Part shown: in pieces, positions 46,690 to 62,853 of the stretch
How the letters are laid out: each line of letters begins with the position of its first letter
Numbering within the stretch: the stretch's first letter is position 1
Source of the DNA: a virus
Lineage: Duplodnaviria; Caudoviricetes
Virus record (IMG/VR): IMGVR_UViG_3300035208_007487
Strand: one strand, 5' to 3'
DNA: 64,000 bases
Position numbers and translations under genes: made by a program
The notes under the pieces: model-generated
The model's database searches: none
What the model was told of the DNA's origin: nothing
Seen by the model: only the letters and a program-made list of their open reading frames with translations

Positions 46690-47110
46690 ATTGGAGCACC
46701 TATATGCCCATAAAATTTTTTTACATATGGGGGTATTTAAATAATAATTTTTTTGAGGGTACTTAATAACCGCCCTTTAAAATATGATGATGGACATTTT
46801 TGAGAAATGTGACAATATGGGGCAAAATTTTTTAAATTAATGGGGGTCATTAATAACCCTCTTTTGAATGTGAAGAGCTATGGGGCAAAAATTTTTATTC
46901 TTTGGGGGTAGATTGAAATATGAATACTTGTAAGGATATTTAATAACCCCTTTGGGAATACTGGTTGACATTTTTGAGCATAGGGGGGAATATGGGGCAA
47001 AAATTTTTATTCTTTGGGGGTCTAAGATAAGATATAGGGGGCATACCTGCCACCCTCCCTATATAACAAGGGTGGCCCTACACCTTAGCCATAGCTATTT
47101 TAATACCCCC
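46690..47110. repeat. non-coding direct-repeat block (candidate replication origin)
   Basis: TATGGGGCAAAA(A)TTTTT...TGGGGGT x3, TTAATAACC x3, GACATTTTTGAG x2. Confidence 0.55.
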
Positions 47111-47147
47111 TAATAGCCGATCTAAGGCCATCAATTAGCCAAAAGGT

Positions 47148-47402
47148 TTAGTTCTTCATTGGCTCATTTAACAAGCTACAAACGTCCTCAAATCGGAAAT
47201 AATAATCTGTCAAGATATAATAGAAATCGTTTTCCAAAGTTATTGTAAAGATATTGTATGGAGTAATCGTATGCTTGCCAGTATAAGGCTCAACACTTTT
47301 TGCATTAATCTTTTGACCGGCAAATAAAGTAATAGTTTCAAATCGCTTATTGATAGGATTATATAAACATTGCCTAGTAGTATGCAATATGATTATTTGC
47401 AT
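47148..47402 (-). CDS. hypothetical protein
   Basis: 84-aa ORF, AGAAAAG upstream. Confidence 0.45.
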   Translation of the reverse strand: MQIIILHTTRQCLYNPINKRFETITLFAGQKINAKSVEPYTGKHTITPYNIFTITLENDFYYILTDYYFRFEDVCSLLNEPMKN

Positions 47403-47522
47403 TTTACTTTTCTTTGTTAGTATTTTTAACTACATTCAAACAATAGTCACAAACAATTGAATTAAAATGGCTAGGCAATTCAATTAGATTATGGCAATGG
47501 GGGCATTTGATTTTAATGTATT

Positions 47523-47837
47523 TCATTCGGCTTCATCCCCCAAACAAGAAACCTTCCAAGAACCATTCACATACATCACAGTAAGGGCATAAGTTTCCCC
47601 TGAATTACAATAGTCAATTCCCTCTTCACATTCCACCCCGCAAGTGTGAATAATTTCATCAATGGCATATAGCTTGATAAGATATGCTTCAGGACGTCTA
47701 TAGCATGAACGAACATACTTAGTAGCTTTTTTAGAAACCTCTTCTGGATTGATTTCGTTGCGAATGATTCCGAGAATCTTATCGGCATCTTCCTCGGTTA
47801 CATCTTTGATTTGCAGTAGACGGTTTTTGAAAGACAT
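47523..47837 (-). CDS. conserved hypothetical early protein
   Basis: GVE..YCNSGETYALTV motif; start reassigned to MSFKN. Confidence 0.55.
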   Translation of the reverse strand: MSFKNRLLQIKDVTEEDADKILGIIRNEINPEEVSKKATKYVRSCYRRPEAYLIKLYAIDEIIHTCGVECEEGIDYCNSGETYALTVMYVNGSWKVSCLGDEAE

Positions 47838-47916
47838 TTGAATACTCTTTAGTAAATTAGATTTGAACAGGTAAATGAGAAGGAAGCTAGATAACTTCCT
47901 TCCCTGATAGTTTCTT

Positions 47917-48141
47917 TTATTGGTGGTCCATATAAGAAACAGTTGCGCCGCATCCTTCCGGGACATTGGCGGCGATCATGTCGCGGGTATCGACGTATGC
48001 CACTTCCACGGGCTTCACAAGCTTGGATTCACGGGCCGAAGCGTCGAAGGTGGAAGCGGAAATCGCAGGGACGTTGACGGCCTTCGGAGCGGTGCGACCG
48101 TCGAGAGCGAGCAGCGAGAGAGCGATCATGAGCGTATCCAT
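47917..48141 (-). CDS. GC-rich small early protein (signal-like N-terminus)
   Basis: AGAAAGA-N7-ATG; own promoter; C/G-ending codons. Confidence 0.6.
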   Translation of the reverse strand: MDTLMIALSLLALDGRTAPKAVNVPAISASTFDASARESKLVKPVEVAYVDTRDMIAANVPEGCGATVSYMDHQ

Positions 48142-48281
48142 TTGAGTATCTTTCTTTTTGAAGGGGAGCAACATTGCCCGTCCCTTATGTTATATAAGAT
48201 AATGCCAAAAATTAGCCATGTCAAGAGGTTGACTAAAAAAACATGAAAAAAGTTTGTTCTGCAAATTAGTGAAGAACATGA

Positions 48282-48376
48282 AAATAATTCCAAAATTTAG
48301 TCTAGCCAATCAGTCCAGTCTATACTAAATTCCAAGTATATACATAAAGGAATAATAGATATCTCACTCCATTAAT
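48282..48376. repeat. intergenic element copy 1
   Basis: AATAATTCCAAAATTTAG..CTATACTAAATT..GGAATAATAGA..TCCATTA. Confidence 0.9.
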
Positions 48377-48416
48377 AGCTCAAAAAGAATGGGGGAATAA
48401 TCGCTCCCCCAATATA

Positions 48417-49841
48417 TTAAGGATTGATTATGAATAGTTCATTTTTGGAACGAGTTATTGCCACATACCAAAGATTTCTTTCTTCTTGTTCTGAATGAGA
48501 ATAAGTATCGGCAAGAACATAAACAGTATCCGATTCTAATCCTTTGGCTTTATGAGTAGTAGAAAGCATAATAGCAGATTTATCATTTACATCCGAGAAT
48601 AGATTTTTAATGTTATCAATTAATTCATTTTTAGATTTACAATTACTTCCAATTATTCTAAGACATTGTGCCTTATCTTCAATCATATCCGTTTTGGGAT
48701 TAGCTATTCTTTTTTTAAGTCTAATTATTTCTTCATTTTCCCAATCATTAACATATTGAATGAATTCGGAATAATCTTCTTTGAAATTATTAACAACATT
48801 TAATAAGCCTTCACCGTAATCCTTTCCTCGAATCATTGCTTTTTTACCTTGAGATATGAACCCAAAAATAAGAGAAGCTAATGGAGCATTTTTTCTTGAC
48901 AATATGAAACTACCAGCACTTGCATTTTCTTTCATATATTCATAGTTTTCATATACAATAGAACCATCTATTGCATTAGGGGCGGCACTAAATTCAGGTA
49001 CATCCTTTGAGGCTAGTTCACAAATCAACTTAGGGCACCTATATGAAACAGAAAGAGGATATTCTTTAGCAGACATCTTTTCCTTGAAGATATCCATAGC
49101 ACCCGTAGCTGCTCCCCTGAAGCCATAGATAGCTTGAGCAGGATCCCCCACTACACAAATACGCCCATTTGTTTTAACCATTCGGCAAATGAATTCAATT
49201 TGGGCTTTATTAAAATCTTGTGATTCATCTCCAAAGACCCAATCAAATTTTGGAATAGAAAGATCTTGAACAACTGGCATATAAATCATATCATCAAAAT
49301 CAATATAGGAAGTCATTTCTTTTGAGATATTTAATGTGCGGAGAATCATTTGGACAAATATATCAAAAGAAAGACCAGAATCTTTATCTGAATAATTAAT
49401 GTCGAATTCCTCACAAATGGAATAAATATCCTCAATTGATTCGGCTAGATATGCTTTTGCTAATGAGACTGCCTTGTAAGCGGGGCCAAAAAAATTGCTT
49501 GGAAGATCTTTATAGGTTTCATTTAGAATCTTCCTAGTCTTATCATGCGAGCCATGAGCACAAAAGACCCTACCATAGGCCTTTCTAAGCACACCGAAGC
49601 CCGTTGAATGCAAGGTGGCTACTTTGATATGTCTATCTGTAGGGACTCTTGATTCAATCTCTTGAACAATAGCTTTTGCGAATGCTACAAAAGCTACTTT
49701 GTCAGTAGGTTTAGTATAGTCTAATGCTCCAATCAGTGTAGTAGTTTTGCCACTACCGGCTAGTGCTCTGATTTGAATGTGCCCGCTGCCATTTGCTATA
49801 GCGTCATAAATGTTGGCTTGCGGAATAGATGGTTCAAGCAT
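48417..49841 (-). CDS. UvrD/Rep-family SF1 helicase
   Basis: ALAGSGKTTT, DFDDMI, GDESQD, VGDPAQAIYGFRGA, SYRCP, STTHKAKGLE, YVAITR. Confidence 0.92.
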   Translation of the reverse strand: MLEPSIPQANIYDAIANGSGHIQIRALAGSGKTTTLIGALDYTKPTDKVAFVAFAKAIVQEIESRVPTDRHIKVATLHSTGFGVLRKAYGRVFCAHGSHDKTRKILNETYKDLPSNFFGPAYKAVSLAKAYLAESIEDIYSICEEFDINYSDKDSGLSFDIFVQMILRTLNISKEMTSYIDFDDMIYMPVVQDLSIPKFDWVFGDESQDFNKAQIEFICRMVKTNGRICVVGDPAQAIYGFRGAATGAMDIFKEKMSAKEYPLSVSYRCPKLICELASKDVPEFSAAPNAIDGSIVYENYEYMKENASAGSFILSRKNAPLASLIFGFISQGKKAMIRGKDYGEGLLNVVNNFKEDYSEFIQYVNDWENEEIIRLKKRIANPKTDMIEDKAQCLRIIGSNCKSKNELIDNIKNLFSDVNDKSAIMLSTTHKAKGLESDTVYVLADTYSHSEQEERNLWYVAITRSKNELFIINP

Positions 49842-50000
49842 TAAAACTCCTTTGGCAAAATTGCCCTAGGTAAAATATACATTATTTGGCAAAGCTTTGT
49901 CAAGGGATAGCTGAAGAAAATTAATATAGTATTGGATTATTATATCTATTATTACATATGAAAAAAAGGAAGAATTAATTATCTTCCTTTTTTAACAGAA

Positions 50001-50708
50001 TTAAATAGATGCAATAAGCTCTTTCATTTCTTCATTCAAAGTATTTTGGGATTCAGCCCAAGTCTTTACATTTTTCAGAAATTCGGGGCAAATGATTTCG
50101 TGGTCTTCAAGGTCATTAATTGCCACATAAATCATATGCTGAAAGGAAGATTGGTCACATTCCCAATCTTGCAGTATTCCCTTAAATGCAATGTTTGCAA
50201 CCAAACGGCGGCGATAGCCCATTGATTCATTGATGCAGGAAAGAATCTTGGCAACCTTTTCTTCTAGTTCAGAAGTGATTCTAACAGTTTCAGTATCATG
50301 TCCATAGGCAAATTTGAAAGTCATTACCATTGGCTTATATTCACCACGAACCAAGTATCCCAAATCTTCCTTCAATTTGGCAATACGATTTTCAACTATT
50401 TTGGAATAATTGTGATGTAGAAAGCCCGTAGCTAATTCAGGTAAATTACAAGTAGTGTCAACCCCCTCAAATTTGAATTCGGGATTCTTAAAGAGATGCG
50501 GATACGTATTCATAATTTCAATAATTTGCTTTTCCCTTTGATCCGCTTCATTTTGGCGATTAACTACTTCGGTTTCTAGCCGATTGATTTCATCCTTCAG
50601 ATCGGAAATGCGGGGATCATTCTTGATGCGCTCTGCATTGACCTTTTCAGCTAGCAGACGATCAATTTCCTTTTGAATTTCTTCAGGTGTGCGAGTCGTG
50701 GTATCCAT
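50001..50708 (-). CDS. coiled-coil early protein
   Basis: Own promoter and terminator. Confidence 0.65.
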   Translation of the reverse strand: MDTTTRTPEEIQKEIDRLLAEKVNAERIKNDPRISDLKDEINRLETEVVNRQNEADQREKQIIEIMNTYPHLFKNPEFKFEGVDTTCNLPELATGFLHHNYSKIVENRIAKLKEDLGYLVRGEYKPMVMTFKFAYGHDTETVRITSELEEKVAKILSCINESMGYRRRLVANIAFKGILQDWECDQSSFQHMIYVAINDLEDHEIICPEFLKNVKTWAESQNTLNEEMKELIASI

Positions 50709-50849
50709 TTTCTATTCTTTCGGTTTAATGTCGGCAACATTGCCAATTTCTTATATACTAAAGATACTGTCAAACATTGAAGATGTCAAGAGCTTGAACA
50801 AAGAAAGATGAAAAAAATTTGGTGTTCTTCTAATTAGTGAAGAACATGA

Positions 50850-50944
50850 AAATTCTTCCAAAATTTACCCTAGCCAATCAGTCCACTCTATACTAAATTT
50901 CAAGTATATACAAAAGGAATAATAGAGTTGGATATCTCTTATTA
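50850..50944. repeat. intergenic element copy 2
   Basis: Same core sequence. Confidence 0.9.
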
Positions 50945-50984
50945 GCCAATAAAAAGGAAGACATATCAATCTTCCTTTTATCAA

Positions 50985-51251
50985 TTACACCTTAATGATT
51001 TCAAATTTATTACTTGCTTCACAAGAATCATAAAAAGTATTGCGATATTCTATTCCAATTTCTCCTAAATTAATAAGGGCATTCATTACTTCAGTATTTT
51101 CACCGGAAAATGAAGCGGTATTGTAAGTAGTATGTGCAATATGAATAGGATGATTATTAATAATCTTATAGATTTCTAATGTAATATAGCATTCACCATT
51201 AAATATAGGTTTTCCAACTTTTACAGTATAGTAAATGAATACGGTTTTCAT
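50985..51251 (-). CDS. hypothetical protein
   Basis: AGAAAGA-type RBS. Confidence 0.55.
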   Translation of the reverse strand: MKTVFIYYTVKVGKPIFNGECYITLEIYKIINNHPIHIAHTTYNTASFSGENTEVMNALINLGEIGIEYRNTFYDSCEASNKFEIIKV

Positions 51252-51364
51252 TGTGAGATCTTTCTGTGATTAATTAAGATGCTTTACGAATACGATAGAT
51301 GCCATATAGCAGCATCGCAAGAACAATATAATGATTTGACATCCAATTAAGGACGCACATTTTA

Positions 51365-51976
51365 TTATATTCCCAACAATTCCCGATGATTAATCAAACG
51401 GTGTTCAATCTTATCATAGATTTGCCGAATACGTTCATGCGAAAGATTAAGAGCAATTCCAATATCTCGAAAGCTCTTTTCTTCTTTTTTCATGAGAAAG
51501 ATTTGCCTTTCTTTTTCATTCAAAAGCAGATTATTCAAAATGTAATTGAAAGCATCCAAATAATCATTAGTATTTTCTTCGGAAGTATTGCCAGCTACCA
51601 TATCTTCCAAAGTATCCGACGAATCATCACCCCCAATTGGAGCATCTAAAGAAACGATATCCATTTGCCGCTTTTGTGCTTTGAAATACAGAAGATAGCT
51701 ATTCGCGGCATTTCTGCCAACATAATAAACCACCACTCCCAAATCTTTATCTTTGCGACCTTCCCACAAACGGCGCATAGTATCAATGGATAGTTCACCC
51801 GTTTTCTTTGCATGGCTATTGAAGATAATAGAAAGCAAATCGCTAGGCTCTATCGCATAATACTTTGTCACAAGGTTGTAAGTAGTGTAAATAACCTTTG
51901 GAGACGTGAAAGGCATATGCGTAGCCTTTTCTAGTTCAGTCAAATATCCTCGAATCATTGACATATTGCCTGACAT
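51365..51976 (-). CDS. sigma70-family (ECF-size) sigma factor-like protein
   Basis: VSLDAPIG..TLEDMV; region 4 LNEKERQIF..SFRDIGIALNLSHERIRQI. Confidence 0.75.
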   Translation of the reverse strand: MSGNMSMIRGYLTELEKATHMPFTSPKVIYTTYNLVTKYYAIEPSDLLSIIFNSHAKKTGELSIDTMRRLWEGRKDKDLGVVVYYVGRNAANSYLLYFKAQKRQMDIVSLDAPIGGDDSSDTLEDMVAGNTSEENTNDYLDAFNYILNNLLLNEKERQIFLMKKEEKSFRDIGIALNLSHERIRQIYDKIEHRLINHRELLGI

Positions 51977-52052
51977 TTTTTTGCTCCCTTGTTAGGTTTA
52001 CTGCTCTTTGATAATAAAGATATGATAAAACTTTGAAGATGTCAACTTTTTT

Positions 52053-52226
52053 CTAGGAAATCTTTGCTCTCAAATCTTCTAAGGTATTGACACCTGTCAT
52101 TAGATCAGACAGATCGGCCCTGAAGATGATATTTTGGGCATCCCTCAACATGATAGAAAAATACTCTTCATGGGTTTTTTGAACCTTGGGCAATTCTTCT
52201 AGCTGGAATGGAAATGCTTTGTTCAT
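52053..52226 (-). CDS. small protein (57 aa), probably leaderless
   Basis: MNKAFPFQLEELP...; ATG lies 6 nt after the -10 box; absent from ORF track. Confidence 0.5.
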   Translation of the reverse strand: MNKAFPFQLEELPKVQKTHEEYFSIMLRDAQNIIFRADLSDLMTGVNTLEDLRAKIS

Positions 52227-52286
52227 ACTCTTAAACTATATTTTAATTTCTAAGATGTCAACTAATTTGATGAATAAAACAAAAAT

Positions 52287-52380
52287 AATAATTCCAAAAT
52301 TTACCCTTGCAAGTTTATTCACTCTATATTAAATTTCAAGACATATAATAAAAGAATAATAAATATCTCACTCCATTATT
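52287..52380. repeat. intergenic element copy 3 (divergent)
   Basis: Same core with several substitutions. Confidence 0.8.
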
Positions 52381-52424
52381 AGCTAATAAAAAAAAGGAAG
52401 ATTTTTAATCTTCCTTTTTCCAAT

Positions 52425-52577
52425 CTACCAAAGTTCCCAAAAGAGTGACTTCTTGCAAGTCCTGTACAAATCTTTCTTGCAAGCCCTACGATATTTGCGA
52501 TTCAACCTTTTCTTAATATAGGCACGCTTTATTGCAGTATTCTTATTGCATTCAGATGCATGCGGATGGTATTTCAT
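52425..52577 (-). CDS. small basic protein (50 aa)
   Basis: AAGGAAGGAAG RBS; MKYHPHASEC... Confidence 0.45.
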   Translation of the reverse strand: MKYHPHASECNKNTAIKRAYIKKRLNRKYRRACKKDLYRTCKKSLFWELW

Positions 52578-52591
52578 ACTTCCTTCCTTAT

Positions 52592-52786
52592 TTAGTAGAC
52601 GATTTCGCCAAATTGATTTTCAACATGGGCAACCGAAAAATTCAGAATTCCTCCTTTTCCTTTAGCTGCCAAAAGATCATTAAGATGCTTTTTGGCAATG
52701 GATAATGTTTTCCATTCCATCTTTCCTTTGATAGAAAGATAAGAACCTTTGCCATCTTCCTTAATCAAATGAATGGAGTAATTCAT
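52592..52786 (-). CDS. hypothetical protein
   Basis: GAGGTG SD. Confidence 0.55.
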   Translation of the reverse strand: MNYSIHLIKEDGKGSYLSIKGKMEWKTLSIAKKHLNDLLAAKGKGGILNFSVAHVENQFGEIVY

Positions 52787-52787
52787 T

Positions 52788-53261
52788 TTAGCACCTCTTG
52801 AATCCCTTCAAGAGGGAAGAAATTTCACGACGGGCCAAAGATTTTTGGACATTGGCTTGCCTAGCCTGAAGAGAAGAAACCGAATTGCCATAGACCGCCT
52901 TCAGATTGGCTTCAACCTTCGACCGCAAATTATCCATCTTCAGGGCTTTCCATGCGATGTAATTGGGAGAATGGACGATCTGCGATGTGTAAGCTTCCTC
53001 TGCAAGCTTGGCGTCAACTTCGCTCCTGAAAGGTTCCGACTGCAAGCCGTTCGTCCAGTCAAAAACGAGCATCCAACGAGCAGGAAGAAACTTTCCATGC
53101 AAGCGCTCACCAGAAATCTTCTGAATATGGCAAATACGGAAAACGGTAGGATCAGACAAAACGGCTTGCATTTCCTTATCAATAGCTTCCTTAGTTGCGT
53201 GAAAGTTCTTGACATGAGCAAAGCCCTTCTGAATCGCGTTAAGTTCCTTGGAAGTGTTCAT
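52788..53261 (-). CDS. GC-richer early protein
   Basis: AGGA SD before MNTSK; own promoter. Confidence 0.6.
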   Translation of the reverse strand: MNTSKELNAIQKGFAHVKNFHATKEAIDKEMQAVLSDPTVFRICHIQKISGERLHGKFLPARWMLVFDWTNGLQSEPFRSEVDAKLAEEAYTSQIVHSPNYIAWKALKMDNLRSKVEANLKAVYGNSVSSLQARQANVQKSLARREISSLLKGFKRC

Positions 53262-53403
53262 TTTGTCGGTCCTATCGTTAAGGTTCAAGTGCGAGGCCGT
53301 TTACCTCTTCACATAATATAGCCCGAAATATTGGCCATGTCAAGGGCTTGATAAAAGAAAGATGAAAAAAAATTAGTGATCTGCTAATTAGTGAAGAACA
53401 TGA

Positions 53404-53499
53404 AAATAATTCCAAAATTTAGTCTTGCCAATCAGTCCAGTCTATACTAAATTACAAGTATATACATAAAGGAATAATAGAGTAAGATATCTCTTATTA
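53404..53499. repeat. intergenic element copy 4
   Basis: Same core sequence. Confidence 0.9.
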
Positions 53500-53542
53500 G
53501 CCAATAAAAAAAGGAAGACATATTAATCTTCCTTTTTATCTC

Positions 53543-53692
53543 TTACTTGTATTTACGAATCATTTCCCGAATATCTGCTAAAGTTTCACCTGAACAATGT
53601 TGTCCATTTACGCTAGCAGTATATCTCAAAGCGAATCCAATTGCAGTATTTTTCCAAATTTGAACACCAAAATATACTGAATGCGGTTCCAC
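53543..53692 (-). CDS. small protein (49 aa)
   Basis: GAAAGGA RBS, GTG start. Confidence 0.45.
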   Translation of the reverse strand: MEPHSVYFGVQIWKNTAIGFALRYTASVNGQHCSGETLADIREMIRKYK

Positions 53693-53693
53693 T

Positions 53694-53891
53694 TTAGTAT
53701 CCTTTCGCTATATGCAAGGGTTTCCATCCCCAATTGTATTCGGTACTCATATCCTTCCAAAACACTGAATAAGTCTTATTCTTATTATTGGCAAGGAACC
53801 TATCCAATTGTTCTTTGGGAGTACCTGAACCGGATTTATTAGTAAAGAAAATTTCCGTTCCATCTTCATGAATTATTTTGTAATGAAGCAT
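53694..53891 (-). CDS. hypothetical protein
   Basis: AAAGGA RBS before MLHYK. Confidence 0.55.
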   Translation of the reverse strand: MLHYKIIHEDGTEIFFTNKSGSGTPKEQLDRFLANNKNKTYSVFWKDMSTEYNWGWKPLHIAKGY

Positions 53892-53907
53892 TTTATTATC
53901 CTTTTGA

Positions 53908-54522
53908 TTAAGTTGCTTCTGCCAAATCAAATTCGTAATTGGTATCAAGCTTTGGGAGATTATCTTTTGCCATTTGCAAGGCTTCATCCAAAGCATAAAT
54001 ATCCCCACACGAATCAATTATTTCCCCATGTTCATCAAAAGGATTGATAGCATGAGTATTATAGCAATATACATCGCCTCGAATGTATTGATCAAAGATA
54101 GCTATTTCGCCCTTCAATCGTTCTTCTACCGCCTTCCAATCAACGCTTCCGGTTTCTGGAATGATAATCTTTTCGGCCATAGCGGTAAGATTATTCATAT
54201 AGATATAACCTACCAAACCAGAATCCCAAGGATCGCCAAAAGGCTTAGTGCTAATGGTATCGCCAGAATGCGAATACATATAAATTGGCAAAACAAGAGC
54301 TTTGCCGCCCGTTGCGTAGTTGTAGAAACCTTCGCTATCTAGAATAAGCTTACCATCTTCATTAGTTTCCAAAGGAATTGCATCTTTATCAGAAGAAAAA
54401 TGCCTTGGAACCAAAGAAATAATCGTAGAAGAGCTTCCCCAACTACGAGGTGAATCATTATCGTTATCCAAGTAAATCTTGATGATAAAGTTACCAATCT
54501 TTTCAGTTTTGACAGAGTTCAT
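53908..54522 (-). CDS. conserved hypothetical phage/plasmid leading-region protein
   Basis: LPIYMYSHSG..PFGDPWDSGLVGYIY, DQYIRGDVY, DSCG motifs. Confidence 0.7.
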   Translation of the reverse strand: MNSVKTEKIGNFIIKIYLDNDNDSPRSWGSSSTIISLVPRHFSSDKDAIPLETNEDGKLILDSEGFYNYATGGKALVLPIYMYSHSGDTISTKPFGDPWDSGLVGYIYMNNLTAMAEKIIIPETGSVDWKAVEERLKGEIAIFDQYIRGDVYCYNTHAINPFDEHGEIIDSCGDIYALDEALQMAKDNLPKLDTNYEFDLAEAT

Positions 54523-54599
54523 TTTTTAGCTCCTTAGAAGGTTTGGTTGAAGTTCTTAGAACAAAGATACATTGAAATTTTTAGTTTGTCAACTAATTT

Positions 54600-54866
54600 C
54601 TAGATTTCCTTTCCAAAATGACCTTCAAGCTCACCATAGGCCATTTCCATAAGATCACCATTAGGTGCGCTTTCATTCCGTCCGGGTGTATAGTCAGACA
54701 TAGAGAGAGCACTGTAAAGCTCGCTATCTTGCCCGCTATGGTAGTTTGAGGCATACCAATAAATAGCGCCCTCAATGTCGAATTCGTCAAAACCATAGAT
54801 CTTGAACTTGGGAAGATTGAGATATTCCCGCATTTCACTTGCGCTCGGATCAAAAAGCTTGCCCAT
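54600..54866 (-). CDS. conserved hypothetical protein
   Basis: AIYWYASNYHSGQDSELYSALS; GGAG SD. Confidence 0.65.
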   Translation of the reverse strand: MGKLFDPSASEMREYLNLPKFKIYGFDEFDIEGAIYWYASNYHSGQDSELYSALSMSDYTPGRNESAPNGDLMEMAYGELEGHFGKEI

Positions 54867-54962
54867 GATTTTTCTCCATTGAAAGATTTTCTAGAATTCC
54901 TTATTAACAAGTATATATTCTAAATCCTAAGATGTCAAGAAAAAACATGAATAAAGAAAAAA

Positions 54963-55057
54963 TAATTCTTCCAAAATTTAGCCTTGCAAATCAGTTCAGT
55001 CTATACTAAATTTCAAGAGATATTCAAAAGGAATAATAGATATATTAATCCATTATT
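54963..55057. repeat. intergenic element copy 5
   Basis: Same core sequence. Confidence 0.9.
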
Positions 55058-55110
55058 CCATATTAAAAAATGAGTATATATAATATATACTCAATCACTC
55101 ACTCAATCAA

Positions 55111-55524
55111 TCAATTATGTTTTTGGGACGGTGTAAACCATTGATGAGTTTCAAAAATATCATTCAAATCATTTTTGTGAGCAATAGCACCTTGCCCATT
55201 TGAATCATATACAATAGTACTATTTTTCATATTCTTGATATGAATTAACCAACTGCATAATAGCTCTGGATATTCCAATTCAGTATTACATTTGGAAATA
55301 TCCTTTTCGCATTGTTCAATCAAGCCTTTAATCAAATCATGAATGAAATTATCAGAATCAAAAGGATCAAATGAACTTGGCATGAAAAACGTAGAAGGAA
55401 TACTATTGTAAAGGCTAAAGAAAAGATAGCCTACCAAATTGCTATTCCAAATAATAGCCGAAACCCCAAAATTGGCCTTGACGATGTGGTGCATATCGGC
55501 ATAGAAACTGCGCTCACTTGCCAT
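55111..55524 (-). CDS. hypothetical protein
   Basis: Own promoter; AGAAAGA RBS. Confidence 0.55.
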   Translation of the reverse strand: MASERSFYADMHHIVKANFGVSAIIWNSNLVGYLFFSLYNSIPSTFFMPSSFDPFDSDNFIHDLIKGLIEQCEKDISKCNTELEYPELLCSWLIHIKNMKNSTIVYDSNGQGAIAHKNDLNDIFETHQWFTPSQKHN

Positions 55525-55594
55525 TTCATATCTTTCTTTTAGTGAGTAACATTACTCATAAGATGAATATAATAATTTTTGGAACTTTGGCAAC

Positions 55595-55862
55595 AAAAAA
55601 ACCCACCTATCACAAAGTAATAAATGGGAAAGCTTTCAAATTGTAAACCGCACAAGCTTAGAGAGTTGAAAGCTTTTTTGGGCCTTAACGCAGAACAAAT
55701 TGTAACGTGAGTTTTACGGCTCTCCGCGAATGTAATTCATTCGACCTCCAATGATGTACTGACAACGACAGCAAGCCCAAATAGAGCGTGCGAATTCTAT
55801 TTCTCACAATACCCAAGGTCGGGCAATAGTAGCGCCACCGAAAGTGCAGGCGGACTTCCTAC
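55595..55862 (-). ncRNA. candidate structured ncRNA (~260 nt)
   Basis: Promoter and U-tract terminator bracket a GC-richer stretch with several helices and no long ORF. Confidence 0.45.
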
Positions 55863-55989
55863 ACATAGAATATAATAATTTGAAAGATGCTGTCAAGCTT
55901 TTTGGGAAGAAAATAATAGAGCAATGAATCCATTATTAGTATATAAAAATGAGCATACATATAATAGGTATGCTCAATCAATCACTCAC

Positions 55990-56286
55990 TCAATTAGGAA
56001 TTAGTACACACATTTCCAGGAAGTTTTCTTTTGTGATGACCACAAGGGTGTCACCATCTTTCTCATAAATGCCCTTCAGCTCCTTTAGAAGGTCTTTATA
56101 TTCTCCACAGGGGCAAGTAGCACTTTCCTCAATGTGGCCCTTTGAAACAGAGCTATGCTGACCAACATGGGCATAGCAAGTGAGATTTCCTTGTCTGTCG
56201 AAATTGACAGGAAAGGCTGCATAGATGTCGTCGTCCCCTTCGATGTCGCTATACTTGAGAAAAGTGACGTAATGAAGCATTTTCAT
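55990..56286 (-). CDS. conserved hypothetical phage protein
   Basis: AAFP..TCYAHVGQHS..EYKDLLKEL; AAGGAG SD. Confidence 0.65.
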   Translation of the reverse strand: MKMLHYVTFLKYSDIEGDDDIYAAFPVNFDRQGNLTCYAHVGQHSSVSKGHIEESATCPCGEYKDLLKELKGIYEKDGDTLVVITKENFLEMCVLIPN

Positions 56287-56360
56287 TCTCCTTAAGAGTT
56301 AGAGCAACATTGCCCTTCACATAGAATATAAAAAAATCTAGAACTTTGGCAACTACTATT

Positions 56361-56696
56361 TTAGACTAATCCCAACAAGTATTCAGAACGGAAGCCTAAG
56401 AACTTTTTCAATTCTCCCTTGATTGTCTTATAAGGATGATTAAGGAATTGTAATAAAGAAGGCTTTTCACCTAATCCAATCATATTGTAAATCTCTTGCT
56501 TCTCATATCCATAATTGAATAAGGATTGTAATAAAATAATGTTATTTTCTGCATTCATCATTTCCTTCATGGTATCTACATATAGGGTAGTTTCTTTTTT
56601 CGGAGTAATGAATTTAATCTGCTTGGTTGGATAATCAATTTCAAAGGTGCTTTGAGCTTTACCATTCAAAAAATATAGGCTGTATTGCATTGTCAT
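56361..56696 (-). CDS. hypothetical protein
   Basis: 111-aa ORF. Confidence 0.5.
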   Translation of the reverse strand: MTMQYSLYFLNGKAQSTFEIDYPTKQIKFITPKKETTLYVDTMKEMMNAENNIILLQSLFNYGYEKQEIYNMIGLGEKPSLLQFLNHPYKTIKGELKKFLGFRSEYLLGLV

Positions 56697-56802
56697 TCCT
56701 TATGTGGAGGTGAAGTAGTCCTAATATAATTAAATTAATATAATATGTAAACAAAAAAGGAAAGCATTGAAGCCTTCCTTTTCAATTCAGTCGATAATTA
56801 TT

Positions 56803-57153
56803 CTAAATTCTTGTGGCTAATCCAGTGGTTTGAACGAAAAGAAATTCCAATTGATCGCAATACACATCATCATGAGTTATTTTCAAATTCCAATAACCTT
56901 TGGAAATCCGATAAAAATCCATCCGATATGTATCTCGGCCTTCACAATAGCTCAAAATTAATCCATTCAAGCCATTATTTGCTTTGGCTTTGAAATGAAT
57001 CATTGCAGCATATTCACACTTACTAGCCTTGTAAGTATATGAATATGGAAGATTTGCTCCAATCATTTGAAGAAACCGGCTACCACCGATTTGATTCATC
57101 ATGGTAAAAACTACCTTTTTTACCTCTTCATCTGGAACAGTATTGTTTTCCAT
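56803..57153 (-). CDS. conserved hypothetical phage protein
   Basis: QIGGSRF..MIGA, DTY.M.F, DVYCDQL..F...TGL. Confidence 0.65.
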   Translation of the reverse strand: MENNTVPDEEVKKVVFTMMNQIGGSRFLQMIGANLPYSYTYKASKCEYAAMIHFKAKANNGLNGLILSYCEGRDTYRMDFYRISKGYWNLKITHDDVYCDQLEFLFVQTTGLATRI

Positions 57154-57154
57154 T

Positions 57155-57478
57155 TTATTCTACCTCATTAGAACCATGATAGAGTTTCCAATCCCGAATC
57201 TTTTTGTCAAGATATTTGATAAACCTTTCATCTTCAATCTCCGCCTGAGAAACCATATCGGTAATCCAGGAAAATTCTTCTCGCATTTTTTCAGTATAAA
57301 TTTTTACATTAGCGATAACTAATTCTAATGTATTGTGCATATTCCGATAAGCCTCGAATCTAGCTACATCTTTTTCTTGCTTGAATTTAGCATATTGAAT
57401 AGCCGCATTGGTATATGCGTCAACAGTGCCTTTATCCAGTTGATTAAGAAAGTCTAGCAATTGATCTTTGGCGCTCAT
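57155..57478 (-). CDS. hypothetical protein
   Basis: GAGGTG SD; own promoter. Confidence 0.6.
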   Translation of the reverse strand: MSAKDQLLDFLNQLDKGTVDAYTNAAIQYAKFKQEKDVARFEAYRNMHNTLELVIANVKIYTEKMREEFSWITDMVSQAEIEDERFIKYLDKKIRDWKLYHGSNEVE

Positions 57479-57489
57479 TTTTTCACCTC

Positions 57490-57687
57490 TTAGGTTAAGT
57501 TGGGGGTTCTGTTATAAGTAATATAAAAATTCTTGAGGCTTTGGCAACAAAAAAGAGGATCTTTTTCAATCCTCTTATTATCCATTCTTCTGTACTTTGT
57601 TTGGTCCTTGAATGCTTGGCATCTTTGCTTTGGCAAAGGAATCCGAACTTTTGGTAATTCTAGCTTTCGCCTTTTGTAGTCTTTCAT
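57490..57687 (-). CDS. small basic protein
   Basis: FKDQTKYRR basic motif; 3' end overlaps a promoter. Confidence 0.4.
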   Translation of the reverse strand: MKDYKRRKLELPKVRIPLPKQRCQAFKDQTKYRRMDNKRIEKDPLFCCQSLKNFYITYNRTPNLT

Positions 57688-57698
57688 ACCACAATTAT

Positions 57699-58349
57699 TT
57701 ATCCTCTTACGTTGTAAGTATCTTCATTTACTATCCAGCCTGAAATGTTGCTTATTAGAATAGCATTAACAATTGGCTTTGCTGCTTCAATTGATACACC
57801 TTCCGATAATGGAGCTACTACTCTTTCAGTGGGAAGAAAACCTATTTTAAGGTCTTTTAATTCATCTCCTTCAAAAGCTTCCTCTGTTCCATCTGAATAT
57901 ACCTTGAAATATACTACTTCAGATGCTTCCTTGGCAAGCTCTGCAAGTGATTTATTTCCGCTAGAATAAGCCCTTAAATACTTTACTCCATCTTTTTCAA
58001 TGAGTATCTTAGATCCATCTACCCATTTTCCCCAAGGTAATGGTTTACTTTCAAAGTTGCGAACAAATCCATTCTCTGCTAATGTATCATTAACTCTATC
58101 TTCATAATCATCACCTATTGAATATAACTTAGTAGATTCTTTAACTACCCCCTCAATAGTAAGATTGGTAGGATGTGTGTAACATTCAGTAAGAGATACC
58201 TTAAGTTTACCAATAGATTTTATTCTATGGCCTTTCAATACTTTAGGATTAGTACGAGTAGTGATGAATAAATCAATTGGACCTTTACCATTAAATTCAT
58301 TCAATAATTCAGCTACTTTATTTGCGGGGATATTCTTTTTGCTAGACAT
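57699..58349 (-). CDS. conserved hypothetical phage protein
   Basis: YEDRVN..L..F..KPLPWGKW..LIEKDG..YLR. Confidence 0.65.
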   Translation of the reverse strand: MSSKKNIPANKVAELLNEFNGKGPIDLFITTRTNPKVLKGHRIKSIGKLKVSLTECYTHPTNLTIEGVVKESTKLYSIGDDYEDRVNDTLAENGFVRNFESKPLPWGKWVDGSKILIEKDGVKYLRAYSSGNKSLAELAKEASEVVYFKVYSDGTEEAFEGDELKDLKIGFLPTERVVAPLSEGVSIEAAKPIVNAILISNISGWIVNEDTYNVRG

Positions 58350-58460
58350 TAAATTACTCCAATTATTCTATGGTGTAATCTAATGGTAACATTTAATAAG
58401 GAACAATAAAAAAGGAGAGCTAATTTAGCCCTCCTTTAGATGAACATTGAAAATTGAAGA

Positions 58461-58976
58461 TTAGGCAGCGGCGGGAGTCGAAGTATCAGCCTTCGGAGCG
58501 GCACCGTTCTTTGATCCCTTGGGGGCACGGTGGGTAACTTCGCCCTTGAACTGCTCCTGCAAGCGCTTGATCATCTTGGAAATGGAGTTCAGGCGAATGG
58601 AATCCAGCTTGGCAGTGAACTTGCGAGGAGCCTTGATGCCCTCAGCCGCGCCGCGAACCTGGGCATTGATCGTGCATTCGTGGCCGAAAAGAGCCTCATT
58701 GAGAGCCACTTCGACCATTTCATCTTCGACCTTCACCAGAACCTTGGAATCCGGCAAAGTCTTGATGGAATCCAAGATGCTCTGACGAAGCTTCTGATCC
58801 TCGTCCTTACGAGCGCTCTTCTGAACACCCATCGCCTGCTTCACTTCGTCCTGCTTCTGCTTCAGAATGGACTGAATCTTCTTGAGGTCCGTGGTGGGGA
58901 TCGCATTGACATCCAGGGTGACAACCGGAGTATCGGTCTTGGGAGCAGCGGCTGGAGTGTTGATCGTGTTTTCCAT
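58461..58976 (-). CDS. GC-rich Lys/Ala-rich early protein, paralog 1
   Basis: AGAAAGA RBS; two promoters upstream; aligns with 60619..61269. Confidence 0.75.
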   Translation of the reverse strand: MENTINTPAAAPKTDTPVVTLDVNAIPTTDLKKIQSILKQKQDEVKQAMGVQKSARKDEDQKLRQSILDSIKTLPDSKVLVKVEDEMVEVALNEALFGHECTINAQVRGAAEGIKAPRKFTAKLDSIRLNSISKMIKRLQEQFKGEVTHRAPKGSKNGAAPKADTSTPAAA

Positions 58977-59260
58977 TGTCTTGTCTTTCTGATTGTGGTG
59001 AGTTTGTGAGTGGCTTTCAAGAGTCATTCTTGATTACCCTCTTGTATCTCTAATATCATTTTTCCAAGTTGCCTTGTCAAGCGATATTTTGAGATTTTGA
59101 AGTGAGAGGTTTTTGATTCCCTCCCCTTCCTTACACATAGAATATAAAAATTTAGCGACTCATGTCAAGTCTTTTGGAAAGAAACTTTGAAATTCTTTGC
59201 TTTAGTAGTAGTGAGTCAACATGAGCAGAACAACATTAAAGATCTTTAATACTAGCCTAA

Positions 59261-59354
59261 AAATAATTCCAAAATTTAGCCTTGCAAATTTGTCCAGTCT
59301 ATACTAAATTTCAACTATATAAGAATGGAATAATAGATATCTTAATCCATTAAT
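59261..59354. repeat. intergenic element copy 6
   Basis: Same core sequence. Confidence 0.9.
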
Positions 59355-59398
59355 ACTATATAAAAAATCCCCTAAAATTTCTCTTAGAGGATTAAATA

Positions 59399-59471
59399 TG
59401 TGCCCGGTGGGGCTTGGACCCACGACCCGCGACTTAAAAGGCCGCTGCTCTACCAACTGAGCTACAAGCAC
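59399..59471 (-). tRNA. tRNA-Lys(UUU)
   Basis: Cloverleaf GTGCTTG..AGCTCAGTTGGTAGAGC..GCGGC-CTTTTAA-GTCGC..; T-loop TCCAAGC; CCA not encoded. Confidence 0.88.
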
Positions 59472-59609
59472 GTCTCAAATCTCAACACATTATGCTATCA
59501 TCCAATAGAGGTGAGAAGCTAATTGGACGATTCCTTGAAGGCTATCCTTCCTCATCTCTCATGTAAATAATATAATAATTTTACCCAGCTCTGTCAACTT
59601 TTTCTTCAA

Positions 59610-60401
59610 CTATCTCAAATCATATTGAGAAACCTGAACATTATCAATAATTATATTATTTAGATTAACTTTAGCTCTAGTAATAATATTATCAATTGCA
59701 GTATGTGATAATAATAATTCTTCACCTAATTCTCGTAATGTCTTTTTCTTCTTCCCAAACAATCCTTCATAATTAATCAAACAGAATTTTTCTCGTTCTT
59801 CTAATTGATTGATATATCTATGGATTAGATCTACCCTAGCCTTTACCAATATTTGGGTTAATGCATTCTCTGCATTAGGATCGGGCACAATCTCTTCCAA
59901 TGTAGTATCATTCCCATTACCTAATACAATGGGAGAATCAATTGGAGTAGTATTCAATAATGGTAGTATATTATCTTGCAATTCTTTTTTCAATTCAGTC
60001 TCTTCAGGGGTTAGATTATCCCGTTCAAAGATTCTTAGCTTTTTTGCCTTACTTAACAGAGTGTAATAGTTATGTGGAATATGAATGATTGGAGCATTTC
60101 GATATTCCTTTTGACATTCAGATCTCATATAGAATCCAATATGCTTGGCAAAATGTATCTCACCTAGATACATCTTATCATCTGCATACTTTTTGATTCC
60201 ATCCATGAATCCCTTAATACAGGCAGTCATTGCAATATCAAAAGATAAGCTACTTGCTCGCTTGGCAATTTTGATTCGTAAGGGTTGATACTGAATGAAT
60301 AATGAACTTACTAGGTTATTCCAATCTTGCCGATAAACTTTTCCATCTGGTCTACAAAATACTCTACAAAATTCAGCTTTATGTGTACTGTATTCAGGCA
60401 T
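59610..60401 (-). CDS. sigma70-family RNA polymerase sigma factor
   Basis: FAKHIGFYMR, IIHIP, IDSPI..TLEEIVPD, LEEREKF..YEGL..KTLRELGEELLLS. Confidence 0.8.
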   Translation of the reverse strand: MPEYSTHKAEFCRVFCRPDGKVYRQDWNNLVSSLFIQYQPLRIKIAKRASSLSFDIAMTACIKGFMDGIKKYADDKMYLGEIHFAKHIGFYMRSECQKEYRNAPIIHIPHNYYTLLSKAKKLRIFERDNLTPEETELKKELQDNILPLLNTTPIDSPIVLGNGNDTTLEEIVPDPNAENALTQILVKARVDLIHRYINQLEEREKFCLINYEGLFGKKKKTLRELGEELLLSHTAIDNIITRAKVNLNNIIIDNVQVSQYDLR

Positions 60402-60618
60402 GGAATCCTTTTCTGGGAACAAAGAGGTTAAGCCATTAATATATTCCAATCTGATGAATAAAATTAAGATTATGAGTAAGGGGAAATTCCCTTGCCTGGA
60501 TTCTAATATAGTGCAGCTATCCATAGTGGGCAAGAGAAAATTTTACATATTTTGAAACACAAAAAAGGAGAACCAAAATGGTCCTCCCTTTCATCTTATC
60601 ACTTGGCTTGATTTTTGA

Positions 60619-61269
60619 TTAGGCTACGACTGCCTTGGGTGCCTTCTTGCCCTTGTGCTTGGGCACCTTGACGGTATCAACCACGGGAGCGGGAACAGGT
60701 GCAGGAATCTCGGCCTTGGGTGCTTCGGGAGCGTGGCCCTCTTCCATCGTGGATTCGGTCGGCTTCACATGGCGAGTGACTTCGCCCTTGAACTGAGCAT
60801 TCAGCCGGGCAATGGCCTTCTGAATTCCGGTCATGCGAATGGAGTCCAGCTTGGCCGTGAACTTGCGAGGGGCCTTTGTTCCCTCGGGCTGGCCCTTCAC
60901 CTGAGCCATGATCGTGCATTCGTGGCCGAAAAGAGCCTCTTCCAAGCTCACTTCCACGTACTCCCCTTCGACCTTCACCACCACAGGATGGCTCTTGAGG
61001 GCGCGAAGATCATCCAAGATCGTCTGACGAAGCTTCTGATCGTCACCCTTCCTGGCCTTCTTCTGGTCGTCGAGAACCTTCGAGGTGCTGGCCAGAGCCG
61101 CCTTCAGAAGCGAATCAGCCTTCTTCAGGACATCCTTGGGAAGAGCAGCCATTTCCTCGGAACTGAGAGCCGAAAACTTGGCGGCAGTGATGTTCTCGAC
61201 CGTGAGAACTTCATTGATGACGGTTTCGGTGAAAGCAGAGACAGGAGCGGAAGTAAGCGTGGTTTCCAT
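60619..61269 (-). CDS. GC-rich Lys/Ala-rich early protein, paralog 2
   Basis: EALFGHECTI.AQV.G..EG.KAPRKFTAKLDSIR shared with paralog 1. Confidence 0.75.
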   Translation of the reverse strand: METTLTSAPVSAFTETVINEVLTVENITAAKFSALSSEEMAALPKDVLKKADSLLKAALASTSKVLDDQKKARKGDDQKLRQTILDDLRALKSHPVVVKVEGEYVEVSLEEALFGHECTIMAQVKGQPEGTKAPRKFTAKLDSIRMTGIQKAIARLNAQFKGEVTRHVKPTESTMEEGHAPEAPKAEIPAPVPAPVVDTVKVPKHKGKKAPKAVVA

Positions 61270-61458
61270 TGTAGTGTCTTTCTTTTGAGGTTGAGAGGCT
61301 TGGAGAACCATTCTCGTCGTCTCTTACACATAGAATATAAAAATCTAGTGACTTTTGGCAACTAAATCTGAAAGAAAGTTAAAGATAATTTGCAGAACTA
61401 GCTAGGAGGGATTTTCTTGCCTAGTTGCGAGTATATATAATAGCAGAATAGAAGTCAA

Positions 61459-61552
61459 AAATAATTCCAAAATTTAACCTTGCAAATCAGTTCAGTCTAT
61501 ACTAAATTTCAAGTATATACAAAAGGAATAATAGATATACTAATCCATTATT
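61459..61552. repeat. intergenic element copy 7
   Basis: Same core sequence. Confidence 0.9.
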
Positions 61553-61658
61553 ACATAAAAAGAAAGAGTATATATTACTGCATACTCAATCAATCACTCA
61601 ATTAAATGTTGTCGGAAATATATATAATAAGGAATTTATTATTTGCATAAATAGCAAT

Positions 61659-62438
61659 ATGTATAATAAATCAGTAATTAATTTAGCTAAAAAAATGAAA
61701 TTAAATGGAAGCTCAATTAGCGAAATAAGTAGAAAAATTTGTGCTAGTAGATCAGCCATTAAAGAATGGGTTACTCAATCAAAAAGATACACACCTAAAA
61801 ACATATTTTATAATATAACTACTTTTGAATCATTTACTAATAATATGGCAAAGTTTGAAGAATATAGAAAATCATATTATTACTTATTGGGCCAATATTT
61901 GGGAGATGGATGCATTAGCTTAATGAAAAATAAACGAACATACGAACTACGGATAATGTGTGCTGATTCACATCCTATGATAATTGAAGAAGTTAAGAAA
62001 TCCTTAAATATAGTATTTCCATATAATAAAATACAAGATGTGAAACGTCCAGGCTGTCGTTCAATTGGAATATATTGCAGTGCGTTACCTCAAATATTTC
62101 CTCACACTGGAAAGGGCAAAAAACATAATAGAATCATTAAATTAATAGATTGGCAACTTAATTATTTAGAATCAAATAAAATTTATTTACTAAAAGGACT
62201 ATTTCATTCAGATGGATCATATTATTATTCAAAAGCGACTAATAATTATCACTATAATTTTACCAATTGCTCATTAGATATTCATAATATTTTTCAAAAT
62301 TGTTTAGAGTCATTAAACATTAGATATACCTTTAATAAAAGAAAATGTAAAAAAATATTACCTAATGATATATATTTAACAATAATTTATCGCAAATCTG
62401 AAGTAGATAAATTATTTGAATTAATTGGGCCTAAATAA
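61659..62438 (+). CDS. free-standing LAGLIDADG homing endonuclease with N-terminal HTH
   Basis: YYLLGQYLGDG and LLKGLFHSDG; YNFTNCS.DI; HTH SISEISRKI. Confidence 0.8.
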   Translation: MYNKSVINLAKKMKLNGSSISEISRKICASRSAIKEWVTQSKRYTPKNIFYNITTFESFTNNMAKFEEYRKSYYYLLGQYLGDGCISLMKNKRTYELRIMCADSHPMIIEEVKKSLNIVFPYNKIQDVKRPGCRSIGIYCSALPQIFPHTGKGKKHNRIIKLIDWQLNYLESNKIYLLKGLFHSDGSYYYSKATNNYHYNFTNCSLDIHNIFQNCLESLNIRYTFNKRKCKKILPNDIYLTIIYRKSEVDKLFELIGPK

Positions 62439-62471
62439 AAAAACCTCCTAGAAATTAATCTAGGAGGATTT
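62437..62471. terminator. bidirectional terminator
   Basis: AAAAAACCTCCTAGA..TCTAGGAGGATTT. Confidence 0.7.
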
Positions 62472-62475
62472 ATAG

Positions 62476-62840
62476 TGCCCAAGGCGGGACTTGAACCCGC
62501 ACGGCCTTACGGCCAAAGCATTTTACTTACCACTATTACTTTCGTAACCAATCAATTAGATTGTTTGTGGTCTGGACTATCCCTTCATCATATTCAATTT
62601 CTTGAAGTTAGATGGGCGATTATAGTCTCTACACCTTCCTATTACTAGGCTTGGCACGGTATTGGGTCAATATTGCTATTAGGCCGTTCACCGTTAGCAG
62701 CTTATCTAGATAAACTACCCTCAAGGGACTCTTATGTCACTACTTGAGATTACGCCTTACTACATATTCGTTTCCAAATATGCGACCCAACCCTATTACT
62801 AGGGTTTAGTGCTCAGTGTCTACCATTCCACCACCAGGGC
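62476..62840 (-). tRNA. tRNA-Leu(UAA), intron-containing
   Basis: Exons 62808-62840 and 62476-62525 join to give GAGCA-CTTAAAA-TGCTT, long variable arm GGCCGTAAGGCC, T-loop TTCAAGT. Confidence 0.88.
62526..62807 (-). mobile_element. group I intron (282 nt, no ORF)
   Basis: 5' exon ends in U, intron ends in G; core CTAACGGTGAA / AATACCGTGCCAAG / GTAGAGACTA / GATAGTCC (P7). Confidence 0.88.
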
Positions 62841-62853
62841 ATGAGCTAAAAAA

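Follow-up and report, generated by a model that had tools for sequence, protein, structure and literature searches.

The question raised by the stretch of virus DNA analysed here (IMG/VR record IMGVR_UViG_3300035208_007487; 64,000 nucleotides, referred to as the window) is why a double-dyad element of about 100 bp stands repeatedly between the terminator of one small early gene cassette and the promoter of the next. The window corresponds to positions 96001-160000 of contig C18 in a metagenome bin, the whole assembly of which comprises 2.36 Mb, and coordinates refer to the window unless a contig is named. The repeat is real and well delimited. The explanation favoured here, to which about half of our confidence is given, is that the element is the conserved middle module of terminator/element/early-promoter junctions and acts at the DNA level, as a crossover point and also as the site of a DNA-bound regulator.

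Repeat finding over positions 47000-63000 gave one family of seven copies of about 109 nt (at 48280, 50848, 52284, 53402, 54961, 59259 and 61457), and a degenerate pattern of 44 nt matched exactly seven sites in the window, against none in 100 dinucleotide-preserving shuffles. These are exactly the sites listed in a preliminary description of the window, which is borne out in this respect. By running the same pattern over the whole assembly, an eighth copy was located at C18:160954 (window-equivalent 64954, about 950 bases past the window end). Alignment of the copies with MAFFT delimited a conserved block of about 95-105 nt with long invariant runs and more variable flanks, and the length of the element was set at about 100-105 bp. 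The eight copies have identical orientation, span 17 kb of the early region and share a mean identity of 81% (71-91%), and about 55 positions are invariant over 13 copies (eight from this genome and five from a related strain). The copies and the related single dyads are listed below; copies 1, 2, 3, 4 and 7 are also named by the positions 48288, 50856, 52292, 53410 and 61465, respectively.

48276-48382, minus strand: element copy 1 (dyad B, AT palindrome, dyad A), flanked by the helicase terminator and by the promoter of the open reading frame (ORF) 47917-48174, which is rich in guanine and cytosine (GC)
50844-50949, minus strand: element copy 2, upstream of ORF 50001-50708; its counterpart in the related contig L034 has an A half of the copy-61465 type
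52279-52386, minus strand: element copy 3, the A half of which forms the left part of the L034 hybrid copy
53398-53504, minus strand: element copy 4, the B half and terminator of which form the right part of the L034 hybrid copy
54957-55063, minus strand: element copy 5, upstream of ORF 54600-54866
59255-59360, minus strand: element copy 6, after the tRNA-Lys unit and its terminator and before GC-rich ORF 58461-59027
61453-61558, minus strand: element copy 7, upstream of GC-rich ORF 60619-61311
Window-equivalent 64942-65048 (L008:1489-1595), outside the window, same orientation as the other copies: element copy 8
55912-55939, minus strand: isolated dyad B that separates a terminator region from promoter 55896
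49930-49960: weaker dyad-B-like remnant

The distribution of the element was further examined by using profiles and database scans. No further copy was found in the 2.36-Mb assembly by an nhmmer profile of the eight copies, and a half-profile of dyad A had no match there beyond these eight. With a half-profile of dyad B alone, the site at 55912 was recovered at an E-value of 0.011 and that at 49930 at 1.4; of the two isolated B dyads described earlier, the former is therefore credible and the latter weak. No copy was present in the IMG/VR and GTDB species genomes (exact-pattern scans, strict and loose) or at 23 loci of helicase relatives (identity of at most 38%), no megablast match to the element was obtained in cultured phages, and the DNA search of 234 genomes of the order to which the bin belongs returned chance matches only.

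The genes around the element lie on the minus strand, and each junction reads on the gene strand in the order stop codon, terminator, dyad B, AT palindrome, dyad A, 30-103 variable nt, early promoter and next gene. Dyad B is a stem of 9-10 bp with a variable loop of 6-8 nt. The arms of dyad A measure 8 bp (12 if wobble pairs are counted) and enclose 22-24 nt, all conserved but for a variable centre of 5 nt. The short AT palindrome between the dyads is GTATATAC in most copies. Both dyads were found in the alignment of the copies as they had been described. The promoter, TTGACA/TTGCCA-N16-18-TAT(A/C)(T/C)T, follows every copy at 30-103 nt without consistent helical phasing. The conserved block is the double-dyad module itself, as the terminators differ among the copies and the promoters form sub-families. 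A gene-strand hairpin with a T-run lies upstream of all seven copies in the window, and the eighth copy is without a clear hairpin. The earlier placement of the element between a terminator-like hairpin and a leftward -35 box consequently stands for the hairpin on the right of all seven copies and needs amendment for the -35 box, which is 30-103 nt away and does not adjoin the element. The description of the terminator as bidirectional is not upheld, because a T-run follows the hairpin on the plus strand at only three copies (50856, 52292 and 53410), so that most of the hairpins are not bidirectional. The flanking signals are as follows.

48196-48224, minus strand: sigma70-type early promoter (TTGACA-17-TATCTT), example of copy 1
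50761-50789, about 52233-52261, 53315-53343, 54910-54938, 59141-59168 and 61334-61361, minus strand: sigma70-type early promoters at the other copies
53507-53536, minus strand: terminator hairpin, example of copy 4
48390-48411, 50950-50979, 52389-52418, about 55069-55092, 59366-59393 and about 61567-61588, minus strand: terminator hairpins at the other copies
55094-55124, 55973-56003, 61581-61611 and 62535-62565, gene strand: TAATTGATTGATTGAGTGAGTGA-like motif at cassette ends

The last of these is a repeated motif by which all three reading frames are closed with stop codons immediately ahead of the terminator. An extra hairpin with a U-run lies between the element and the promoter at three copies (50823-50846, near 48255 and near 53375) and would stop any transcript leaving the element.

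Whether cassettes come and go at the element was assessed against three related contigs from one metagenome sample (L032-L034, 91-93% identical to C18) and against public wastewater runs, in which 20-30% of the words of the region occur. One of these runs, X4, is labelled RNA-Seq and is probably DNA; it was available as contigs only and is silent on transcripts. The comparison of related genomes for breakpoints, proposed in the preliminary description as a check on the element, yielded three kinds of evidence, namely a hybrid copy with loss of a cassette, conversion of an A half, and losses at the dyad-B/terminator repeats. The segments concerned in the losses are the following.

52348-53466, minus strand: cassette absent from L034, comprising the A half of copy 4, promoter 53343, ORFs 53288-52425, a terminator and the B half of copy 3
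49963-50950, minus strand: cassette absent from run X3, comprising ORF 50001-50708 and the A half of copy 2, with the joint in dyad-B/terminator repeats
55106-55595, minus strand: cassette absent in L033 and in a minority of run X3, comprising a terminator, ORF 55111-55524 and promoter 55593, with a novel 28-nt filler at the joint

L034 is colinear with C18:143866-148419 and then resumes at C18:149384. It is without the 1,118 bp between the two registers, in which promoter 53343, three small ORFs and one terminator are contained, and carries instead a hybrid copy (L034c) in which the left flank and dyad A belong to the copy-52292 type, the dyad B and terminator to the copy-53410 type. The crossover lies within about 20 nt between dyad A and dyad B. 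Since the longest exact word common to copies 52292 and 53410 is 17 nt, a chimera of de Bruijn assembly is unlikely to account for L034c. At the position of copy 50856, the same contig has a copy (L034b) whose flanks are kept and whose B half is identical to that of the orthologue at 35/35 positions, while its A half matches copy 61465 at 58/60 positions against 52/60 for the positional orthologue, which points to a patch conversion. At position 48288, the L034 copy most resembles the eighth copy. Between the strains, 7-14 mismatches per 50 nt were counted at the elements against 0-4 in most of the coding flanks, as is expected if variants are exchanged among loci. In run X3, depth was zero over 50201-50800 and a contig joint ran from 49962 to 50951. 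The loss of ORF 55111-55524 recurs in independent samples, in L033 and, as a minority form, in run X3. As read from these contigs, the loss or gain of whole cassettes and the copying of A halves between loci are shown to occur at the elements among wild strains. Two further joints in Logan contigs, from 50911 to 52348 and from 59321 to 52348, have only 30 letters on one side and may be explained by mosaic copies or graph overlaps, so that they were left out of the count of deletions; the backward one (59321 to 52348) is compatible with an excised circle, but is ambiguous.

Other differences between the strains were recorded in the same comparison. A related strain has an insertion of 166 nt at window position 54597 (L033:328-493), immediately upstream of promoter 54592 and its -35 box, and a second replaced segment was present at C18:143527-143865 (versus L034:717-1000). 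A LAGLIDADG homing-endonuclease gene (61659-62438, plus strand; PF14528, E-value 3e-11) stands free between the terminator of copy 7 and a tRNA-Leu gene; it is absent from L032, and its depth was about 0 in all four runs. The tRNA-Leu(UAA) gene (62469-62860, minus strand) is split in its anticodon loop by an insertion of about 280 nt (about 62526-62804), is uninterrupted in L032, and was not called in its split form by ARAGORN or by Rfam at the gathering threshold.

The genome in which the element resides was characterized from C18 (212,780 bp, 29% GC), which overlaps contig C172 (106 kb) at both ends and gives with it a genome of about 319 kb. Genes for the tail sheath, the baseplate wedge and the large terminase are present, the sheath being 25-28% identical to those of T4-like phages, and the T4 late-promoter word TATAAATA is enriched 9-fold upstream of genes and stands before 17 of them. 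The source is a distant, uncultured T4-like jumbo phage. In the bin, about 1.08 Mb of contigs with less than 33% GC lie beside a genome with about 43% GC, and genomes of the same genus have about 1.0-1.8 Mb; the bin thus appears to combine several large phage-like replicons and gives no evidence of the host. The segment C18:144224-163306 is the main early region of the phage, in which 21 of its 38 strong sigma70-like sites (TTGACA/TTGCCA-N16-18-TATATT) cluster. About 8 of the 21 junctions carry the element; the remaining early promoters of the cluster (about 13 of about 21) are without it, and the element is therefore optional, dispensable for terminator and promoter alike, and not required for early transcription.

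Most of the proteins of the early region are ORFans, with a UvrD-like helicase and two sigma-70-family proteins as exceptions. The preliminary description had noted that the most GC-rich genes each lie directly behind a copy, and this was found to hold for the top five among the 27 ORFs of the region (GC 0.45-0.56; GC at third codon positions, GC3, up to 0.66). The chance of such a linkage is about 3 in 10,000 by our own hypergeometric estimate, which carries less weight because two of the genes are paralogues. Within C18, a cassette of element, promoter and GC-rich ORF is duplicated, with proteins 49% and element copies 85% identical. The GC-rich ORFans 58461-59027, 60619-61311 and 47917-48174 (minus strand) have a GC content of 0.53-0.56 and a GC3 of about 0.66. 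The first two are the paralogues (49% identity), with Lys/Ala/Pro-rich tails and with homologues only in this phage lineage, and the AlphaFold model of the family (pLDDT 48) was too poor for a fold search. The two sigma-70-family proteins (51365-51976 and 59610-60533, minus strand) comprise regions 2-4 with matches to TIGR02937 and phrog_351 below the curated cut-offs, and no viral loci were found by using the sigma-like protein as query. An extended -10 motif, TTTTTGTTATATT (TGtTATATT), is enriched about 11-fold upstream of 15 genes outside the element cluster (C18 and C172); together with TATAAATA and the early type, it suggests at least three promoter classes.

In the favoured explanation, the junctions divide part of the early hyperplastic region into self-contained cassettes, and the copies, being alike and co-oriented, serve as crossover points that preserve register. 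The exchange would presumably be carried out by the general homologous recombination system of the phage. This is the economical assumption, because no site-specific enzyme was found, a UvsX/RecA-like gene is present on C18, the conversion patch is short, and the apparent crossover of L034c coincides with the end of the longest identity block. On C18 and C172, neither a tyrosine (PF00589) nor a serine (PF00239) recombinase was detected, all matches being on other contigs of the bin; likewise, no RAYT (repetitive-extragenic-palindrome-associated tyrosine transposase) or Y1 transposase was detected on them, and PF01797 was matched only on contigs C79, C80, C129 and C177. A resolvase on C25, the only match on a low-GC contig, was considered as a candidate enzyme and rejected, as it belongs to a different replicon. 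A sequence-specific reader, most likely a DNA-binding protein of the phage or the host, may occupy the two dyads and tune or insulate the adjacent early promoter, and such a regulatory function would keep the sequence conserved and hence recombinogenic. We infer this reader, probably a DNA-binding regulator, because about 55 positions never vary, all copies point one way and lie only in the early cluster, and the element is linked to a particular subset of genes (the GC-rich ORFans). From the hybrid copy, the replaced A half and the cassette losses in relatives, the element behaves as a linker of the type of the promoter-early stem-loop cassettes (PeSLs) of T4-like phages. The earlier proposal of a PeSL-like recombination unit is accordingly supported by the strain variation, with the qualification that the conserved core, being neither promoter nor stem-loop, is unlike a PeSL.

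Several observations weigh against this combined explanation. Some strain differences of the region do not concern the element; the breakpoints of the LAGLIDADG gene and of the 55111-55524 cassette lie beside it and not in it. The comparison rests on three short metagenome contigs together with Logan contigs, and several of the contig joints have only 30 letters on one side, so that mosaic copies rather than deletions are possible. Some pairs of copies share little (a longest word of 17 nt and about 65-70% identity) and would be a poor substrate for homologous recombination. On the side of regulation, no binding protein was recognised among the neighbouring ORFans, the distance from the element to the -35 box varies over 30-103 nt without helical phasing, the extra hairpin separates three copies from their promoters, and about 13 of the roughly 21 early promoters of the cluster do without the element.

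The first two of these regulatory points bear equally on the rival in which the element is purely an operator or enhancer for a subset of the early promoters and recombination is an incidental result of the repeats, with no selected role. This rival, which we regard as rather unlikely as a complete account, draws on the invariant positions outside the dyad arms and on the fixed polarity, on the presence of the element at only 8 of about 21 early promoters, which drive a distinct subset of GC-rich genes, and on the resemblance of two dyads with a central palindrome to multi-site operators. The strain data speak against it, since the element is an observed breakpoint and conversion tract between strains and recombination is therefore at least a real consequence of it. 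As the reason for the conservation of its sequence, an operator or enhancer appears the most plausible of the functions proposed earlier. A different possibility is that the element contains weak promoters of its own, a rightward one (TTGCAA-17-TAAATT) making antisense or decoy RNA that ends at the hairpin and a leftward one (TAGACT-17-TAAATT) acting as a second promoter for the gene behind it, which one of the two sigma factors of the phage might recognise. In every copy the spacing of both hexamer pairs is exactly 17 nt, the two -10-like hexamers (TAAATT on both strands) make up the arms of dyad A, five variable bases lie between the -35-like blocks, and two sigma-70-family proteins are encoded in the region. 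Each pair, however, agrees with the consensus at 8/12 positions, a level estimated (not computed) to be common by chance in such AT-rich DNA, and the region has 91 sites at 9/12 or better against 60 expected. Moreover, the motif stands upstream of no other gene in the 319 kb, and the element has neither of the enriched phage promoter motifs, the late motif TATAAATA and the extended -10 motif TTTTTGTTATATT. This possibility is held to be improbable, and its form in the preliminary description, a rightward promoter for decoy RNA, is weak, since a spacing of only 12 nt separates the conserved TATACT from the sole decent -35 box (TTGCAA), the alternative pair reaches 8/12, just three of the eight hairpins have a plus-strand T-run, and pairing is worse on the plus strand. 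Sequence reading further showed that boxes of the sigma-54 (GG-N10-GC spacing unmet), Bacteroidetes -7/-33, MotA-box-like and extracytoplasmic-function (ECF)-like kinds are absent from the element. A candidate site for integration host factor (IHF) coincides with the variable centre of dyad A and lacks conservation.

The strand bias in pairing was also weighed as a sign of function in RNA, with the element acting on the minus strand of read-through transcripts as a back-up terminator, a processing site or a stabiliser. At five pair positions the minus strand, unlike the plus strand, has G-U or U-G, so that 264/286 cells (92%) pair on it against 206/286 (72%) on the plus strand, one-sided changes keep the pairing through wobble, and U-rich stretches follow both hairpins. 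The folding energy, on the other hand, equals that of shuffled sequence on both strands (z from -0.3 to +0.3), compensatory changes number zero with a covariation score below the shuffled mean, and Rfam gave no match even at an E-value of 1; on these three counts a structured RNA was rejected, the wobble asymmetry being the only sign in its favour. A good terminator precedes the element and the promoter comes only after it, so that it would be missing from most transcripts, and a role in RNA is considered quite doubtful. Nor was any recurring antisense match to the element blocks found elsewhere in the phage, as a trans-acting RNA would have suggested. Finally, cassettes may be exchanged in a site- or structure-specific manner (attC- or res-like), by a recombinase acting on the two dyads with crossover in the central AT palindrome. 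The co-oriented array flanking the cassettes, the well-resolved crossover of L034c with several ambiguous joints between dyads A and B, the strand-biased hairpin potential and a deletion between copies sharing only 17-nt words would all fit, but the lack of a tyrosine or serine recombinase or Y1 transposase on C18 or C172 does not. The A-half tract of L034b is, besides, a short patch typical of homologous gene conversion, the crossover lies at the end of the longest identity block as predicted by homology-driven exchange, and the cassettes carry their own promoters and no attC core sites; such exchange is thus barely credible. Hardly more probable is the bolder version in which the double dyad would be a dedicated cassette socket, with a crossover core in the central AT palindrome and a strand-specific hairpin or protein-bound site. 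If it were true, a lytic jumbo phage would capture, reorder and co-regulate GC-rich, foreign-looking genes and anti-defence RNAs by an integron-like platform for gene capture that has no known integrase.

The phage comes from landfill and groundwater metagenomes, with partly matching relatives in the wastewater runs. PeSL-type shuffling has been worked out in a few cultured T4-type phages, and natural-population evidence for it, in the form of one hybrid element, one patch of conversion and repeated losses of cassettes, is here obtained in a very distant uncultured relative of about 319 kb. The portable homology in this phage is a separate, highly constrained module, not the promoter or the terminator. 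If that module is a protein-bound operator, the early accessory genes behind it would form a co-regulated and co-mobile set, possibly with anti-defence functions, and regulation and gene flow would be linked within one sequence.

The element was compared with three known kinds of repeat. It shares with the attC sites of integrons and the Vibrio cholerae repeats the co-oriented units of about 100-120 bp that punctuate small accessory gene cassettes, the cassette boundaries inside the repeat and the strand-biased hairpin potential. It differs from them in that no integrase is present, each cassette is equipped with a promoter and a terminator of its own, the genome is that of a lytic phage, and two local dyads stand in place of one long imperfect palindrome with R''/R' core sites. 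Bacterial interspersed mosaic elements (BIMEs), built of repetitive extragenic palindromes (REPs), are likewise mosaic intergenic repeats of about 100 bp with two palindromic units and a conserved linker, lie after gene ends or terminators, and are known as protein-binding sites (IHF, gyrase) and recombination substrates. REPs, however, are elements of enterobacterial chromosomes spread by RAYT, none of which is on C18 or C172, and have no sequence similarity to the copies, all of which lie within a single 17-kb phage region and ahead of a promoter. The analogies to attC, res and REP/BIME fail because the matching enzymes are absent from C18 and C172.

The closest likeness is to the PeSLs, composite early-promoter and stem-loop motifs in the hyperplastic regions of T4-type phages, the recombination of which deletes, inserts or replaces ORFans without any known dedicated recombinase (Arbiol et al. 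2010, PMC2839356; Comeau et al. 2014, PMC4122927). Here too, each unit has a strong sigma70-type early promoter with a terminator stem-loop beside the promoter region (7/7 copies in the window), the co-oriented copies cluster where the genome of a T4-like phage is hyperplastic and rich in ORFans, close relatives differ by indels and replacements that break in the repeats, hybrid elements are formed, and no dedicated recombinase is encoded. The conserved repeat of a PeSL, in contrast, consists of the promoter, its AT-rich upstream region and the stem-loop, whereas the conserved part here is a separate double-dyad module of about 100 bp, present at about 8 of 21 junctions and unrelated in sequence to PeSLs. 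Among the distant relatives found through the helicase, L014:3500-14800 has promoter repeats of 55-66 nt, some with a G/C stem-loop over the -35 box, and L011:9800-21500 has repeats of 81 nt consisting of a promoter, a conserved leader hairpin and a Shine-Dalgarno sequence. Judged by these classical PeSL-like repeats, this phage group commonly has repeated junctions, and what is new and specific in the lineage analysed here is the double dyad added to them.

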